From positions 1 through 12,332 of the forward strand of contig QMRC01000020.1 in the NCBI GenBank assembly GCA_003649205.1: 12,332 nucleotides of DNA, written 5' to 3'. How positions within the stretch are numbered: the first letter of the stretch is position 1; each line of letters starts with the position of its first letter. The notes beneath the pieces were generated by a model, which had not been told where the DNA came from, ran no database searches, and saw nothing but the letters and a program-made list of their open reading frames with translations. This DNA is from Thermoprotei archaeon. GTDB taxonomy: Archaea; Thermoproteota; Thermoprotei; Thermoproteales; B15-G16. Below, piece after piece: positions 14 through 11,753 of the stretch. A program made the translations under genes and the position numbers.

Positions 14-3000
14 ATGAAGAAAGCTAATGTGAGAGAGGTGTACAATAACGCTACGAACACCTACACCTACGTGATAACTGGTCTAGACGTTAAGTGGATG
101 GATCCATACAACTCAATGAGTGCACACTACTGTAAATGGTTCAACTACACAATAATCTCTACAGAACCTCCAAATGCATGGATTAGAGTCTACATCGAAG
201 GCTTTAAAGTAATGACAATACCACAGGAAGCACATGTAGTAATTGGGACAAATGTAGAGAATGACATAGACTACGGAGTAGCATTACTACTATTTGAGTA
301 CACAGGTGTGTATAAGCCCGAGGAGGTAGTTGCTGAGGTACCTAAGGAAGTCAAGGAAGTACTTGGTAGTAGGTTGCTGAAGTACCTAGCACTAGGTAAG
401 TTAATTACAGCTGTAGTACTTGACAAGGGTACTATACACCTACCTGAGAACGGTAATTGGACTAAGTCGTACCCAATACAGAAGTACATTGTTGAAGCAC
501 TTGCAAGAGCTACTGTAACGGGTAAGGTGCTCGTAGTTGTTGCTGGTAAGATAAGTGCAACAAAGGACTACTACTGGAGCGATAACTTCGATTATGCAGA
601 TACTATAGTCACAGCTGTGACAAATATAACGAAGGGTAGGCTAGTTGTCCCAATCAAGGTAGTTGATGTAGATACTGATGAGCCGATACAGGGTGCAACT
701 GTGAAGATCTTCAAGAAAGTTGGTGCTAGTGAGGAGCTAGTTGCAGAGGGTACGACTAATGCTAGTGGAATGGTTACACTGTACGTACCGTGTGCAGGTA
801 CGTACAAGCTATATGCTGAACACCCAGACTACAAGCCGAATTACATCATCACACAGATCTACTACAACACAACTGTACCATACGTGATTAAGCTAGCTAG
901 GAAGGAGTACCAGCAGTGGGTACCTCCGCCTCCTCCAGTGGCTGGTGAGTACGGTGCTGAGGAAGGTTATCCGCCAATAATAACACCTGAAGGTAAGAAG
1001 ATGTACTGGTTGCTGATACACGTAGTAACGAAGGATGGGTTCCCAGTATCTGGTGCTACAGTAAAGATCTACAATGCAACAGAACAGCTGTACGATACCG
1101 AGGTGACGAACGGTACTGGAACAGCGTACTTCCTAGTACCAGAGGGCTTCTCAGGAACTTACGAGGTCTACTACAATGAACTCTACGTCAATGGAACTAT
1201 AGCACCAGTCTACAAGCACAGAGTGATCGAGGTAGTTCTACCAATATACTCGAAACAGAATAAGACAGGACACGTAGTGTTCTACGTATACGATGTAGTG
1301 AGTAGAACACCTATTGAAGGGGCTAAGCTAGAGATTAAGGAGCCATACTACAACAGATTAGTTGCTGTGATGTACACTAATGCTACGGGATATGCAGAGA
1401 AGTGGCTCCCATACGGTGCATACAACTTGACAGTGTACGCTGGAGGCTACTACAACTACTCAATTCAGTTCTACGTACTCAGCACAGAGCAAGTAATCAG
1501 AATACCTCTTCTACCACTGACAGGAGTTACACAGTACGTACCTCCATATCCTCCAGCAAATGACTCAAGACCTCCAGTGATAATTAATGGAACTGAGTAC
1601 TACTATCTATGGGTTAGGGTTTCGTATGAGGATGGTGCTCCAGTTCACGGTGCTAATGTCACTGTGTACGATGCTGTGAGATACAGTGACATAACTAATG
1701 GAACGGGAACTGTGTACTTCCTACTACCAGCATACAAGGTGTACTACGTAAATGTGACGTACCTCAACTACACTGCTGTTAGGAGTCTAAATCTAACACA
1801 TCACACATTCCTAGTGTTCAAGGTACCGTACAAGTCTGTGTACTTCCAGCCAGAGGTACTGATCAAGAGTGTAGATCTAGTATTTGTCAGAGGTATAGCA
1901 CCTGCATATCACCTAGTACTCGTGACAATACTGACTAATGTACCACAGACAGTTGTTGTCGAGGTTAACGTAACGAGAGTTGATACTGGTGAACTGATTA
2001 AGAGCTACAACGTGACGTTTGTATGTGATGAGGCAGGAGTCTACACCAATGCGACATTCGTGTACATAAATGTGACAGGGCAAAATGTACCGTTTAGGGT
2101 CTGTGCTAAGATAGTGCAGTTTGAGTACGATACAAACCTCGACAACAACTTCATGTGCTCAGCAGTGAGGAAGATATCGAGCAAGAGAGGTGTAGAGGTC
2201 TTCGTGCTGTGGAAGGTAATTGACTTCGGAAACAAGTACAGGTACATCCTACCAGAGCTAACTAAGGTACAGGTCTGCATTAAGGTGAAGACAACATTTA
2301 ACCTAACTACGTACAAGCTTCATGTAAAACCAGTTATCGAGTACATGGACTACATTAAGAAGCGTAGAGAGAGGATTGAGAAACTAGCAGTCATCACTAC
2401 TGAGAATCCAAGTGGAGCAGTGATGTGGTTCAACTACACCTTCGTGATACCTTGGACAGATGTTATCAACTTAACAGCACTTATTGAGAAGTTACCAATA
2501 CCAGTTGACGAGATCAAGATATTCAATGCGAGCATTAGAGTTGATCCAAATGCTAGGCTAGAGAGAGTAGATTTACCGAAGACAGTAACGTCAGAGCAAG
2601 AGTTCACGTACAAGATTGTTGTTAAGTCAAATGTCTACGATCCACAAGCCTCGGCAACAGTAGTGTTCATAGATGCAGATACGGGAGAAGTAGTGTACTC
2701 GTGGAGTAGTAGAGTAGAGCTAAAGAAGGGTCTAAATACAATTGTCATAAAGGCTAAAGCACCAAGAGTAGAGCCAAAGAAGATATTCGGCTTTGAGGTA
2801 GCACCAACAGTTAAGAAGTTCATAGTGAATGCAACCGTAAACGGCTACAACGTATATCCCGAGGACGATACCTTAACAACAACAGTGTACGTAAGCTCCA
2901 AGATACCGCTACTAACATGGGCATTCATAGGAGTACTAGCATTGATAATCCTCCTCCTAATACTCGTAATGGTATCACTACTTGCAAGAAAAACAGTTAC

Positions 3001-3025
3001 AATCAGAAGAACGAGATACTTGTAA
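14..3025 (+). CDS. Large membrane-anchored surface/virion glycoprotein with four carboxypeptidase-regulatory-like (prealbumin-like) beta-sandwich repeats and C-terminal Ig/CARDB-like domains; probably 5'-truncated
   Basis: 1003-aa ORF. The frame is open back to base 2 (CTA GTT GAC GCA ATG) and no signal peptide is visible, so it likely starts before the window. Four repeats of 'V..D..P(I/V).GA.V.I...TN.(S/T)G....P', two Pro-rich linkers, more than 25 N-x-S/T sequons, CARDB-like endings (DTNLDNN, YPEDDT), and a C-terminal hydrophobic helix (WAFIGVLALIILLLILVMVSLLA) followed by a basic tail (RKTVTIRRTRYL). Confidence 0.85.
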   Translation: MKKANVREVYNNATNTYTYVITGLDVKWMDPYNSMSAHYCKWFNYTIISTEPPNAWIRVYIEGFKVMTIPQEAHVVIGTNVENDIDYGVALLLFEYTGVYKPEEVVAEVPKEVKEVLGSRLLKYLALGKLITAVVLDKGTIHLPENGNWTKSYPIQKYIVEALARATVTGKVLVVVAGKISATKDYYWSDNFDYADTIVTAVTNITKGRLVVPIKVVDVDTDEPIQGATVKIFKKVGASEELVAEGTTNASGMVTLYVPCAGTYKLYAEHPDYKPNYIITQIYYNTTVPYVIKLARKEYQQWVPPPPPVAGEYGAEEGYPPIITPEGKKMYWLLIHVVTKDGFPVSGATVKIYNATEQLYDTEVTNGTGTAYFLVPEGFSGTYEVYYNELYVNGTIAPVYKHRVIEVVLPIYSKQNKTGHVVFYVYDVVSRTPIEGAKLEIKEPYYNRLVAVMYTNATGYAEKWLPYGAYNLTVYAGGYYNYSIQFYVLSTEQVIRIPLLPLTGVTQYVPPYPPANDSRPPVIINGTEYYYLWVRVSYEDGAPVHGANVTVYDAVRYSDITNGTGTVYFLLPAYKVYYVNVTYLNYTAVRSLNLTHHTFLVFKVPYKSVYFQPEVLIKSVDLVFVRGIAPAYHLVLVTILTNVPQTVVVEVNVTRVDTGELIKSYNVTFVCDEAGVYTNATFVYINVTGQNVPFRVCAKIVQFEYDTNLDNNFMCSAVRKISSKRGVEVFVLWKVIDFGNKYRYILPELTKVQVCIKVKTTFNLTTYKLHVKPVIEYMDYIKKRRERIEKLAVITTENPSGAVMWFNYTFVIPWTDVINLTALIEKLPIPVDEIKIFNASIRVDPNARLERVDLPKTVTSEQEFTYKIVVKSNVYDPQASATVVFIDADTGEVVYSWSSRVELKKGLNTIVIKAKAPRVEPKKIFGFEVAPTVKKFIVNATVNGYNVYPEDDTLTTTVYVSSKIPLLTWAFIGVLALIILLLILVMVSLLARKTVTIRRTRYL

Positions 3026-3053: not shown

Positions 3054-3572
3054 TTACCTACCTCTAACTCTGTATTCAGCAATGGGATTTCTGTAGAGTA
3101 CTAGCTTAGTGTTTGGTAGTATGTTCTTTAGTGCTTCAATAACTCTCTCACTGTCATCCCAAACCTCCTCAATTTCGTAACCGACATCTAGTAAGTGCCT
3201 TATCACCTCTAGCTTAAGCTCGTAATCCTTCCTGTAATCTCCCTTCTTCCTGAAGTAAATCTCATCAACAGGAATCTCATACCTCCTCAACTGATTGAGT
3301 GTAGCGTACTTCTGAGTCTCCTCAACTCTACCAGTGACAATGATTATCCTGTAACCACTTCTCTTCATCAACTTCACATGTGCAACAACATCGAGATTAG
3401 GTCTATCTAAATACATGTACTTCGGACTGAGAAAGAGATTCCAAAATCTCCTCCTCTGCTTAGAATCTGCTTTTGACAAATCATCTACACCAACTTCCTC
3501 AAGGCATCTCCTAATTCTCTCAGATACATCAAATAACACACCATCTAGATCCACAACTATTGCCTTCACCAT
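3054..3572 (-). CDS. HAD-superfamily phosphatase resembling the T4 polynucleotide kinase 3'-phosphatase domain (stand-alone)
   Basis: Motif I DLDGVL, motif II IIVTGR, motif III Lys (DYELK), motif IV WDDS..V; 'D.P...V' and 'FR..GDYRKD..LK' are typical of PNKP-phosphatase-like HADs. ATG at 3572 is preferred over GTG 3581 because GGTGG lies 5 nt upstream. Confidence 0.88.
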   Translation of the reverse strand: MVKAIVVDLDGVLFDVSERIRRCLEEVGVDDLSKADSKQRRRFWNLFLSPKYMYLDRPNLDVVAHVKLMKRSGYRIIIVTGRVEETQKYATLNQLRRYEIPVDEIYFRKKGDYRKDYELKLEVIRHLLDVGYEIEEVWDDSERVIEALKNILPNTKLVLYRNPIAEYRVRGR

Positions 3573-3659
3573 GTAGCCCACCAGTAGCTAAAGCACACAG
3601 AATCTATGAGTAGAAGATATGAAATAAGATGTGAAAGAGGAGTATAGGAGGCAACATAG

Positions 3660-9878: not shown

Positions 9879-10016
9879 TTACATCATGTCTTCACAGATC
9901 CTAGCTATTAACTGCTTGAACTCCTCCCTCGTAGGCAACCTATTGTGCACAGCTACAAAATCAGCGTAGTAACAAGCAAGAATCTCGTAGTGTGTCTTTA
10001 TCTCCCTTTTGTACAA
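9879..10016 (-). CDS. Unannotated 45-aa ORF or 3' remnant of a gene cut by the TnpB element (LYKREIKTHYEILACYYADFVAVHNRLPTREEFKQLIARICEDMM)
   Basis: Open frame with element-typical codons fills the gap between tnpB and the 514-aa gene; only a TTG start with no SD; the frame stays open across the putative element end at 10026. Confidence 0.6.
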   Translation of the reverse strand: MYKREIKTHYEILACYYADFVAVHNRLPTREEFKQLIARICEDMM

Positions 10017-10041
10017 TGGATAAAGCCGTTTCAGAGTTTGT

Positions 10042-11133
10042 TTACTTCTCGTGATTTTTAATCACTTTTAATCCCTTGCAGGCTATTATGTATGCACTTG
10101 CCATATGTCTATCTAGTCCTCTTTTCTTCATTACCTCTTCATGTTCTTGACTATGTGTTGTTCCCTTTGGATCTACTAGTATTGGTGTTAAACCAAGCTT
10201 CAAACTCATTAACAATCCATGTTGTAGAAGTTGTTTCTTAGCAAACCTAGTTATCTTCCTATTACCGCTTGGTGACCTTACTCTACTACGCTTCTTCACT
10301 TCAAAAAGGTTCTCAAAAACAATGTAGTCTACACCAATCCTCCTAGCATAGCTTAGTAGTTCCTTCAATTTCTTCAACCTAATATCTCTAGCTTTATCTC
10401 TAGGGAAACCATGTAGTGTTACTTCAGGAAACCAAGCAGTTTTCATAGCTACGATTCTGCCACTAGGGTCTATGATAACCATGTTAATCCTATCACTATT
10501 GAGGTCTAGCCCTGCCACTAATCCATACCCTCTACGTTCTGGTAGTGAGAAGTGTTTTAGGTATAGGAAGAGTGGTACTGAAACATGTAACTCGATCCTA
10601 CCTTCTCTAAGCACTATACGAGTACCGTAACCTTCCTTTTTCTGATTTGCTAGCTCAAGAAGTTCTCTCAGCAACGAAATGTATCTCTCTCCAAAGAATG
10701 CTCTACACTTTATCCATGAACTATCCCAAGGATACTTAATAAATACTTGAAAGAACTTTGTACTTGGAATCATCTTTATGTTTCTATTACCTTTATCGTA
10801 CTTGTTGCCTCGTGATATAATGAACAGTTTCTTAACATGTATGTGCCTAGGATTACCATTATTGAATTTACACCCCTCAACTATGAACTTTGCATGTTTG
10901 TATGCTGATTCTAGGTAGATATAGTTTGGAAGCATCTGATAAAGCTTCTTTGTAGCATCCTTCATAGAAGCACCATTTACTACCTCACGAATCATCAACT
11001 CAACAGCCTTCCTGAAGCTCCACGCTAATCTCACAAGTTTCATGTAGTCTTCTGGAGTCTCTGGAAGAAGCTTACCGATAACTGTTACGTGAGGTATTAG
11101 CTCCTCTACGCTACTCAGTCTTAGTGTAGACAA
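10042..11133 (-). CDS. tnpB: TnpB-family RuvC protein, Zn-finger-less archaeal subtype with RuvC-III D->H
   Basis: RuvC-I AGLD210LN, RuvC-II IVFE274NL, 'LVDPKGTT' motif, RuvC-III D341-R-H343-MASAYIIA; no CxxC pairs between RuvC-II and RuvC-III; TTG start with strong SD GGAGGTGA. Confidence 0.9.
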   Translation of the reverse strand: MSTLRLSSVEELIPHVTVIGKLLPETPEDYMKLVRLAWSFRKAVELMIREVVNGASMKDATKKLYQMLPNYIYLESAYKHAKFIVEGCKFNNGNPRHIHVKKLFIISRGNKYDKGNRNIKMIPSTKFFQVFIKYPWDSSWIKCRAFFGERYISLLRELLELANQKKEGYGTRIVLREGRIELHVSVPLFLYLKHFSLPERRGYGLVAGLDLNSDRINMVIIDPSGRIVAMKTAWFPEVTLHGFPRDKARDIRLKKLKELLSYARRIGVDYIVFENLFEVKKRSRVRSPSGNRKITRFAKKQLLQHGLLMSLKLGLTPILVDPKGTTHSQEHEEVMKKRGLDRHMASAYIIACKGLKVIKNHEK

Positions 11134-11260
11134 TCACTATCACCTCCTTACCGTGTAGGTGCTTCATCTTCTCCGCTACATGCTTTGGTATGTAAATACC
11201 TAGGGATTTCCCTCTACCGAGCTTAGATAGTTTAGCAGTAAACACATAGACCTCACTCAT
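11111..11260 (-). CDS. Unannotated 49-aa AbrB/MazE/SpoVT-type swapped-hairpin DNA-binding protein
   Basis: MSEVYVFTAKLSKLGRGKSLGIYIPKHVAEKMKHLHGKEVIVIVYTKTE* matches the AbrB pattern 'K..K.G..S.GI.IPK.....L...G.EV.V.V'; overlaps the tnpB start by 23 nt and contains its SD. Confidence 0.82.
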   Translation of the reverse strand: MSEVYVFTAKLSKLGRGKSLGIYIPKHVAEKMKHLHGKEVIVIVYTKTE

Positions 11261-11286
11261 TATCCGTACACCAAATATGAACAAGA

Positions 11287-11310
11287 CAGAAATACTTATA
11301 AGCTTTCTCC
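11287..11310. promoter_or_regulatory. Palindromic TATA box (CTTATAAG, 11296-11303) with purine-rich BRE-like flank on both strands
   Basis: Minus strand GGAGAAAGCTTATAAGTA lies about 35 nt upstream of ATG 11260; plus strand CAGAAATACTTATAAGC lies about 24 nt upstream of the start of the GC-rich segment. Confidence 0.7.
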
Positions 11311-11326
11311 ACCTATCTCTAGCATT

Positions 11327-11445
11327 GGATGAACTCGATGAGCTAGGCGAGGGGGACGCATGAGATGAAGCTCCGTGTCGCCCGAGGGAGGTACGCTCCC
11401 GAAGGGAGGCACGGAGCAGATAAATAGGGGTGATGAGGGCGAGTA
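11327..11445 (+). ncRNA. Candidate structured ncRNA (possible omegaRNA-like scaffold) divergent from abrB-tnpB
   Basis: GC-rich non-coding island: stem GCTCCGTG 11370-11377 / CACGGAGC 11410-11417, inner hairpin CTCCC-GAA-GGGAG 11396-11408, TCGCCC 11378-11383 complementary to GGGCGA 11437-11442, and a box-C motif GTGATGA 11430-11436. Confidence 0.5.
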
Positions 11446-11456
11446 ATTAAAAGTAA

Positions 11457-11753
11457 TTAGAAATCTCTAAAAGTAACGATGAAACCCGAACCCTCGAAGG
11501 TCTCACCAAGCTTACGTGGGAATCCTGTAGATCTCCTACACAAAAACACAGCAACACCAGAATCACCTTGACAGAATAGAACGATATCACCAGCAGAATC
11601 ATGCTTGTACTCCTCAACCTTTGCAAATACCTTCCTCAAATCCTCGATAAAGTTCATGAAGTCCTTTTCCGTCAACGCACCAATAGTTACTTCACACCTA
11701 ACGTAGAAGTCCGTTAACATGGACTTCCCCACAGTCTGGAGTATCTTAAGCAA
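11457..11753 (-). CDS. Hypothetical alpha/beta protein (87-98 aa)
   Basis: ORF with typical codon use; the true start may be ATG 11720 (GTGGGG upstream) rather than TTG 11753. Confidence 0.72.
   Translation of the reverse strand: MLKILQTVGKSMLTDFYVRCEVTIGALTEKDFMNFIEDLRKVFAKVEEYKHDSAGDIVLFCQGDSGVAVFLCRRSTGFPRKLGETFEGSGFIVTFRDF

Follow-up and report, generated by a model that had tools for sequence, protein, structure and literature searches.

A compact archaeal AbrB/MazE-TnpB cassette with a divergent, covarying structured RNA as candidate guide RNA

The window analysed here is the entire 12,332-bp contig QMRC01000020.1 (C20) of a Thermoprotei archaeon genome (G000; NCBI GenBank assembly GCA_003649205.1), which comprises 2.07 Mb in 31 contigs and is 93.8% complete. 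At positions 10025-11494, this hot-spring archaeon carries a compact cassette of ~1.47 kb that consists of three parts: a gene pair encoding a 49-aa AbrB/MazE-like protein and a TnpB-like protein, a palindromic promoter, and a divergent structured RNA (Table 1). An earlier reading of the sequence (hereafter the initial annotation) had described a 49-aa AbrB-like gene overlapping tnpB, a palindromic TATA box, a folded segment on the + strand and no TnpA, and all of these features are present. A TnpA gene is missing from the cassette, and a search of the whole genome assembly found no Y1 transposase.

The edges of the cassette were defined by comparison among close relatives with 74-87% protein identity. 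On the tnpB side (End B), conservation stops 17-18 nt past the tnpB stop codon, placing the edge at 10024/10025; the 15 nt given in the initial annotation was thus close, although the conserved block is slightly longer. On the RNA side, conservation starts sharply at 11494 (AGGGTTCGGG... on the - strand), and the structured segment, previously thought to end at 11445, extends to 11493/11494. Outside both edges the flanks differ from locus to locus and are mutually unrelated. Cassette sizes are 1454-1527 bp among relatives, and the compared loci showed no target-site duplication, direct repeat or conserved flank motif. No tRNA gene was found in the window. Read outward, the two cassette tips (10024-10068 and 11450-11494) are alike (AAAGTRATTARAAATC...ARAAGTAA...YGAA.C). 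This likeness is significant in the window cassette (WIN), L047 and L114 (0 of 300 shuffles) and not significant in four other subfamily examples (L004, L042, L102-type and L016-type). Terminal inverted repeats were therefore rejected as a general feature of the cassettes.

Table 1 Features of the cassette in the window
Feature	Position	Strand	Remarks
Cassette tip, tnpB-distal (End B)	10025..10041	-	17-18 conserved nt past tnpB stop; terminus ...GAAACGGC(T)
tnpB-like gene	10042-11133	-	363 aa; TTG start (11133), stop 10042-10044; GGAGGTGA precedes start
AbrB/MazE-like gene, 49 aa	11111-11260	-	ATG 11260, stop 11111-11113; overlaps tnpB start by 23 nt
Palindromic promoter/operator	11286..11311		Purine-rich BRE-like arm, TTATAA 11296-11301, mirrored arm
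Structured RNA, divergent from abrB-tnpB	11323..11494	+	Covariance model R1 spans 11314-11493; start estimated
Nearly invariant 5' stretch AUGAACUCGAUGAGC	11329-11343	+	RNA anatomy
G-rich stretch GCGAGGGGGA	11347-11356	+	RNA anatomy
Central hairpin domain	11370..11417	+	P4 (11370-11379/11408-11417), P5 (11381-11383/11404-11406), P6 (11386-11390/11396-11400)
3' module, two mirrored putative kink-turn motifs	11428..11493	+	P3 hairpin 11443-11477
Flank 3' of RNA scaffold, possible guide segment	11495..11514	+	Locus-to-locus conservation stops at 11494/11495

The RNA segment of the + strand folds with a minimum free energy of -62.3 kcal/mol (z = -4.11), and none of 200 shuffled sequences folded as well; the - strand of the same segment gave z = -3.36. 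Described as GC-rich in the initial annotation, the segment has a GC content of about 51% and is purine-rich (A 0.29, G 0.34). It showed no match in Rfam at E up to 1. An nhmmer profile of the segment found it in 76 of 90 distinct upstream regions. The covariance model R1, built on 11 close sequences with a hand-drawn structure of 36 pairs, gave 73 matches in 95 loci, every one of them upstream of and antisense to tnpB. Among the 68 loci with at least 420 nt of sequence upstream of tnpB, 60 have a match. R1 also adjoins TnpB relatives of 36-41% identity (4 loci), and no match was found beside relatives of 26-33% identity. Some genomes hold numerous diverged copies, with 10 matches found in G017 and 12 in G014; G082 has three, one beside each of its three tnpB copies. 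A tblastn search placed the 49-aa gene immediately ahead of tnpB in the majority of loci with at least 45% TnpB identity and with sequence available at that position. The small gene and the upstream segment are thus co-conserved with this TnpB clade, an outcome in favour of the initial annotation, for which homologous loci lacking the segment would have counted as a refutation. Within G000, neither the RNA nor its flank matched a second time and no target-like match was found, beyond chance 14-19-mers. Recurring 14-18-mers of the RNA 5' motif elsewhere in G000 were discounted, since by eye they look like coding strings of the DELDEL type.

The helices of the RNA covary. In the R1 alignment, 92.5% of 2144 cells form standard pairs, whereas shuffles reach 67.6% and none of 500 equals the observed value; pairing falls to 45-51% when the partners are slid by 1-3 columns. 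Double-sided changes occur in 34 of the 36 pairs, with 507 double-change cells versus 141.5 expected. Because the R1 alignment had been fitted to the model, RNAalifold was additionally run on a plain MAFFT alignment of 31 sequences. From this unfitted alignment, it recovered P4, P5, P6, the terminal C-stem and P3, with compensatory changes in 15 of 26 pairs. Stem covariation, which the initial annotation had named as a check, is found in both analyses.

The motif GAUGAA leads into P4, and in helix 2 of the RNA pairing reaches 95.1% and 12 of the 13 pairs show double changes. The 3' module has the order GGGU (11428-11431), GAU, GA, GGGC (11437-11440), GA, P3, GAUGAA, ACCC (11484-11487), GA and ACCC (11490-11493). 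In a kink-turn, as defined in PMC5499556, a C helix is followed by a 3-nt bulge, tandem G-A/A-G pairs and then an NC helix. By sequence and helix covariation the 3' module conforms to this pattern and contains two predicted kink-turns, which lie on opposite strands and share one 4-bp NC helix; their C helices are the terminal stem and P3. Of 71 distinct rows, 35 have GAUGA and 12 have AAUGA on the bulged strand, and 42 have GA and 6 have AA on the non-bulged strand; the mirrored copy has GA in 42 rows and either GAUGAA or AAUGAA(A) in 34. Pairing of the C-stem reaches 97.2%, and all four of its pairs covary (GGGU/ACCC, GAGU/ACUC, GGGG/CCCC, CCGU/ACGG, CCGC/GCGG), and the NC stem and P3 are 87.8% and 94.2% paired, respectively. 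This closing C-stem forms the last 4 nt of the RNA model and the conserved block extends one base more, so that the RNA scaffold ends one base short of the element end. A third kink-turn, sited at the P4 base and having a C-stem of its own, was considered and rejected, as by eye it pairs in L004 and not in WIN, L045 or L055.

Two known RNA architectures resemble this module. The double K-turn of RNase P is built so that a single helix serves one turn as NC helix and the following turn as C helix (PMC5499556), whereas here turns on opposite strands would share one NC helix. The series RUGAUGA...GA...hairpin...GAUGA...YGA together with the terminal stem mimics the C, D', C', D order of archaeal box C/D sRNAs. 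However, the 12-nt guide spacers of such RNAs are missing here; the spacers are 3-4 nt long and pair with each other. For this reason, and with no Rfam match, identity with a box C/D sRNA was rejected.

Several observations bear on the strand from which the RNA would be read. In the + strand orientation of the alignment, G-U/U-G cells number 226 versus 57 for A-C/C-A, and 61 of 64 sequences retain one particular U-G pair in P4. A mirrored model of the tnpB-sense strand (R2) is 87.2% paired overall, and its P4 is 83.2% paired compared with 95.1% on the + strand. Runs of at least four T stop archaeal RNA polymerase; in 62 sequences, seven such runs occur on the RNA (+) strand and 50 on the other strand. 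The GA/GA kink-turn signature exists on the + strand only. The sequence evidence thus favours a putative RNA on the window + strand, divergent from abrB-tnpB.

The palindromic TATA core CTTATAAG (11295-11302) is centred in a palindrome of 26-30 bp with purine-rich arms. Transcription factor B recognition elements (BRE) are likewise purine-rich. A TATA-like hexamer is present in 71 of 72 distinct upstream regions, mostly 37-45 nt ahead of the abrB start. On average, 9.1 of 16 positions of one arm are mirrored in the other, and the arms covary from one subfamily to the next (ACAGAAA/TTTCTGT, ACGGAAA/TTTCCGT, AAGTAAA/TTTACTT, GCATAAA/TTAATGC). As the arms lie within a region that is untranscribed on both sides, their symmetry indicates protein binding. 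The binder could be TFB on either side, which would allow bidirectional firing, a dimeric repressor, or both. By analogy, an AbrB/MazE-type dimer from the first gene would be the obvious candidate for a repressor of this kind: in bacterial IS605 elements, the ribbon-helix-helix (RHH) protein Arc represses the IS605 promoters, according to bioRxiv 10.64898/2026.09.24.754181. Like Arc, the protein proposed here as an own-promoter repressor would be a small dimeric DNA-binding protein of a TnpB-bearing element; it is, however, AbrB/MazE-like rather than RHH and would act on an archaeal BRE-TATA palindrome.

The TnpB-like protein matched no family in a Pfam scan, and its NCBIfam scores were all below cut-off: TIGR01765 with 40 bits (cut-off 47.25), TIGR01766 with 21.9 (32) and guided_TnpB with 13.4 (100). 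It has 454 homologues at E ≤ 0.001 and 219 matches in a representative library at 50% identity. All 120 homologues listed are tagged PF27229.1 and are mostly unnamed or called ‘IS605 OrfB family transposase’; hosts among those listed include Thermoprotei, Desulfurococcales, Staphylothermus, Thermogladius and Vulcanisaeta, with Vulcanisaeta souniana and Thermogladius calderae given as species names. An AlphaFold2 model from 51 sequences (predicted local distance difference test, pLDDT, 90.2; predicted template modelling score, pTM, 0.82) was matched by Foldseek over its whole length with probability 1.00 to AsCas12f (E 5.8e-11), Cas12k (1.3e-10), ISDra2 TnpB (8exa, 1.2e-7) and Fanzor2 (9.9e-6), with TMq of 0.48-0.61. 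A second ISDra2 TnpB structure (8h1j) gave E 4.3e-7. The protein is therefore predicted from its model to have a full-length TnpB/Cas12f fold (WED-REC-RuvC). By sequence, no relative with a solved structure was found at E ≤ 0.01, and the same search gave nothing relevant for the AbrB-like protein.

D210, E274 and D341 do not vary in the alignment, and H343 is nearly invariant (90% or more). The RuvC-III motif is GLD[RK]H, with His at the position of the third canonical Asp; this register is our own reading against the DRDXN motif given in the text of PMC10691335. A C4 zinc finger was not found, as no CxxC pair lies between E274 and D341 (RuvC-II/RuvC-III) in the 26 shown of 51 aligned rows. 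Neither cassette protein had a match in PADLOC or PHROGs, and none of 128 pattern matches in IMG/VR was a relative, so that the suggestion of a virus-domesticated module in the initial annotation found no support. A second tnpB relative in G000 (C9, ~27231-27955) is degraded, with internal stops, 30-39% identity and no RNA match nearby.

The Shine-Dalgarno sequence of tnpB, GGAGGTGA, sits within the 49-aa gene, and the gene pair is translationally coupled. The small protein has a conserved core of G.L.IYIPK...L.G.EV.V.V. Matches to Pfam MazE_antitoxin (cut-off 24.7 bits) were sub-threshold in 7 of 30 members, with a best E of 0.014 and an E of 0.058 for the window protein. A monomer model (pLDDT 89.5) had its best TMq with the dimeric RIFT barrel 8jvq (0.56) and with MazE 1ub4_C (0.50); a Foldseek search with this model gave nothing at E ≤ 0.001, and VIA Z was at most 2.8. 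The label ‘AbrB/MazE-like’ was kept because of these sub-threshold profile and fold hints and the published annotation of the clade. That clade is RIIIr-4, the archaeal ‘RHH/MazE-TnpB’ group, whose members lie downstream of an AbrB/MazE or RHH gene, have lost the C4 zinc finger and have His in place of Asp in RuvC-III (Altae-Tran 2023 PNAS, PMC10691335, as stated in its text). Since the cassette carries this published signature, the pairing of AbrB/MazE with TnpB is already known. Judged by its sequence, the cassette falls within RIIIr-4: it is archaeal, has a small upstream gene, lacks the zinc finger and has the Asp-to-His change. It shares with RIIIr-4, as the text of that paper presents the clade, archaeal including crenarchaeal hosts, the small AbrB/MazE-type gene just upstream, conservation of the rest of the RuvC site and the lack of a transposase in the locus. 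However, RIIIr-4 is described there as non-mobile and as having a long 3' untranslated region (UTR) as a possible guide, whereas the cassettes studied here have empty-site alleles, a tail of 17-18 nt and a conserved structured RNA that is upstream and divergent.

Mobility of the cassette was seen in G082, a complete genome of another genus. One of its cassette copies, together with the flanks, is 95% identical to G078. The corresponding sites in the congeneric genomes G079, G080 and G085 are empty: their flanks are ~80% identical and joined across ~6 nt, and ~1475 bp with tnpB, abrB and the RNA are absent. The RNA model of this G082 copy ends 3 nt before the flank homology to the empty sites resumes. 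The initial annotation had held that presence of the structured segment in empty-site alleles would speak against it; the segment is absent there along with the rest of the cassette. A second G082 copy, 98% identical over 1397 nt, lies at a different locus that G078 lacks, and its immediate flanks have no counterpart in five congeners. The cassette is, or recently was, mobile as a unit. With these empty sites and this second copy, the description of the clade as non-mobile is contradicted for at least part of it. The distribution is patchy, with carriers in 27 of 120 genomes of the class and 16 of 39 genera. Y1 TnpA (PF01797) occurs in only one of five carrier genomes, being absent from G000, G017, G014 and G078, and the sole Y1 TnpA of G082 belongs to a canonical IS200/IS605 element with its own Zn-ribbon TnpB. 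Membership of the cassette in IS200/IS605 was rejected on the grounds that it lacks TnpA, that PF01797 is limited to this one carrier and that no conserved flank motif was found.

Two kinds of short repeat were observed around these cassettes. The ~60-nt tnpB-distal tip of a Vulcanisaeta-type cassette (L126 175-234; G082:C1 ~635993-636052) recurs alone in G082, G081 and G089 with 82-97% identity, and these copies could be solo ends or a small repeat family. A ~48-nt sequence beside the second G082 copy (L130 2145-2196; G082:C1 ~1250856-1250907) occurs as dozens of repeats in all five congeneric genomes with 90-100% identity and could represent a repeat, a MITE or an RNA gene.

We propose, and consider it an even call, that the cassette is a self-contained unit of an archaeal AbrB/MazE-TnpB lineage with a divergent omega-like guide RNA and AbrB as repressor. 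One palindromic BRE-TATA-BRE promoter would fire both ways, leftward into the abrB-tnpB operon and rightward into a purine-rich RNA of ~170 nt that would start near 11323-11326, as placed by the TATA position. This RNA would fold into a three-helix central hairpin followed by the 3' module of two mirrored kink-turns, which would probably be bound by host L7Ae. It may be the clade's equivalent of omega RNA, with the scaffold inside the element and transcription continuing into the flank, which would serve as the 3' guide. The layout would be that of a canonical TnpB, except that the RNA gene would sit at the opposite element end and on the opposite strand, with a promoter of its own. An AbrB-like dimer would bind the palindrome and probably repress both transcripts. 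The RNA is taken as the omega-RNA equivalent because its scaffold ends at the element edge, while the 3' end of tnpB shows little extra constraint. Synonymous-site identity there is 0.79-0.83 over the last ~20 codons compared with a baseline of 0.5-0.65, and the extra nucleotide constraint covers about 60 nt (these codons) plus the 17-18 nt of the tip, with no conserved hairpin.

A number of observations weigh against this proposal. The analysis shows the anatomy of the cassette, its conservation, the covariation and strand bias of the RNA segment, the polymorphism between insertion and empty site and the predicted TnpB fold; transcription, the RNA start, binding by L7Ae and TnpB, guide function and repression by AbrB are steps that we infer, and the assignment of the AbrB fold to the 49-aa protein is weak. 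Pairing counts for R1 and R2 come from alignments that had been fitted to the model. For the NC stem, the tnpB-sense strand gives slightly better pairing than the + strand (91.7% vs 87.8%), and in the window itself this stem contains a C-A mismatch on the + strand. Helix P8 (11319-11323/11342-11346) is the weakest at 78.7% paired, and its 5' strand lies at or before the TATA-predicted start; it was not relied on, because of this weakness and because it may precede the transcription start. At one locus (L008/L015, G015:C8), an intact tnpB of 74% identity occurs without abrB or the RNA, so tnpB can persist alone. The far flank (End B) of 14 WIN-type, 14 L102-type and 12 L114-type loci has no conserved motif resembling a target-adjacent motif (TAM), only a weak preference at +1 that differs between the subfamilies. 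Finally, the text of PMC10691335 calls the clade non-mobile and puts a possible guide in the 3' UTR. As to L008/L015, the N-terminal extension of its database protein suggests a 5'-truncated cassette fused to upstream sequence.

The alternative that survives best, although we consider it unlikely, is an addiction module resembling a toxin-antitoxin pair, in which TnpB would be the toxin and AbrB/MazE the antitoxin that binds it, and the RNA would be regulatory or sequestering, for example as an L7Ae- or TnpB-binding decoy or a promoter brake. The gene order, the 23-nt overlap and a small first gene of DNA-binding type are typical of type II toxin-antitoxin pairs, though only the gene organisation fits. 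The patchy distribution and the lack of a TAM in the End B flank tally would also suit such a module, and the published hypothesis, as given in the text of PMC10691335, includes a co-fold of the RHH partner with TnpB. It gives no account, however, of a ~170-nt covarying RNA whose last stem lies one base from the element boundary. Moreover, a guide derived from the flank would not match the carrier genome, which agrees with the finding of no second RNA or flank match in G000 beyond chance level.

Quite improbable, in our view, is a structure at the DNA level, namely the folded single-strand end of an IS200/IS605-type element recognized by a Y1 transposase in trans, with any RNA being incidental. 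The right ends of IS200/IS605 elements have hairpins 6-7 nt from the end. Here, too, the structure is located at the element tip with hairpins at this distance, G-T pairs are tolerated in DNA as they are in RNA, and G082, the only one of five carriers with a Y1 TnpA, is the genome that holds the 98%-identical second copy. Nevertheless, six covarying helices over ~170 nt far exceed a TnpA hairpin, and the GA/GA signature of kink-turns is a motif of RNA. The other four carriers lack Y1 TnpA, among them G017, a 98% complete genome with 10 copies of the RNA; the TnpA of G082 belongs to the canonical element mentioned above; and the End B flank tally revealed no conserved target motif.

A canonical guide that overlaps the 3' end of tnpB and reads past End B, with the upstream RNA as an accessory, also has little probability. 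It would explain the synonymous constraint over the last codons, it is what the text of PMC10691335 expects, and End B (...YGAAAC.GC) resembles the RNA end (...YGAAC.C), significantly so in WIN, L047 and L114. The constrained stretch, however, is only ~80 nt long and has no covarying hairpin; a GTGAT/ATCAC hairpin present in the window is not conserved in L042, and the likeness of the ends is not significant in L004, L042 or the L102-type and L016-type examples. The tail is 17-18 nt in this subfamily as against 62 nt of unrelated sequence in the Vulcanisaeta type. Least likely of all, and hardly credible to us, is the domesticated, immobile TldR-like regulator with a fixed guide to a host target, because despite the non-canonical RuvC-III motif and the listing of the clade among non-mobile TnpBs in the text of PMC10691335, D210, E274 and D341 are invariant, the flanks are different at every locus, empty sites and a 98%-identical second copy exist, and G000 has no target-like match.

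Returning to the divergent omega-like RNA, its likeness to known guide RNA systems is partial. The cassette shares with IS200/IS605 elements of the IS1341 type (e.g. ISDra2) the TnpB fold, the compact size and an RNA scaffold of 150-200 nt that ends at the element boundary. Unlike in ISDra2-type elements, the RNA would be encoded at the opposite end and on the opposite strand with its own promoter instead of being carved from the tnpB mRNA; putative kink-turn motifs are present, and a conserved TAM, TnpA and a zinc finger are not. With IscB/IsrB omega RNA, the cassette has in common a guide RNA gene, here a candidate, upstream of the nuclease gene. Those RNAs lie on the same strand as the nuclease gene and have a 5' guide according to the text of PMC10691335, whereas the RNA here is divergent and its 3' end adjoins the flank. 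More tentatively than for the proposal as a whole, we suggest that the guide RNA gene has moved to the far end of the element and been reversed, with its own half-promoter, mirrored kink-turns that recruit L7Ae, a flank-derived 3' guide, no obvious TAM, no zinc finger, a His-containing RuvC and AbrB gating both RNA and protein. If true, this would be the first RNA-guided TnpB/Cas12-type nuclease with a guide RNA that depends on a host kink-turn protein. No upstream, divergent or kink-turn-bearing RNA was found described for any TnpB in a literature search that covered the text of PMC10691335 (its figures and supplements lay outside this search), and what is added here to the known gene pair, namely the RNA, its promoter and mobility, seems new.

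Elsewhere in the window, a 98-aa open reading frame (ORF) flanks the cassette (11457-11753, - strand) and has its stop codon within the element. When 10025-11494 is deleted in silico, this ORF runs in frame into a 45-aa ORF (9879-10016, - strand), which would happen by chance in one case out of three. The cassette may interrupt an ORFan gene made up of these two ORFs; the 98-aa ORF had no homologue in the 120 genomes of the class or in a set of 5.8 billion proteins. The contig also encodes a 1003-aa protein (14-3025, + strand) with CarboxypepD_reg/prealbumin-like repeats and a PNKP-type HAD phosphatase (3054-3581, - strand) with a PHROG polynucleotide kinase match (E 4e-34). The other eight of ten scanned contig ORFs had no PHROG family at E ≤ 0.001, and their Pfam matches were all below cut-off. 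On another contig of G000 (C3), identical short matches occur at mirrored positions on opposite strands (~21536, ~269893 and other pairs), a pattern pointing to a large inverted duplication in that contig or to an artefact of assembly.

Cas12 descends from TnpB, which also serves as a compact scaffold for genome editing. To our knowledge, TnpB guide RNAs have so far always been located at the gene's 3' end or past it. For the large clade RIIIr-4, the text of PMC10691335 identifies no guide, and the sole published proposal is a toxin-antitoxin role. The present analysis supplies an RNA candidate for this clade with coordinates, a covariance model and a secondary structure, together with evidence of insertion and duplication and a palindromic operator as a possible target of AbrB. 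Were the RNA not a guide, it would still have to be explained why a conserved RNA of L7Ae type accompanies a nuclease-regulator pair. If it is a guide, omega-RNA genes can relocate and gain their own promoter, which would be a step towards the separate guide genes of CRISPR-like systems. An OMEGA system would then be linked to host kink-turn biology, and the family would offer thermostable nucleases of 355-375 aa, possibly with a relaxed TAM.

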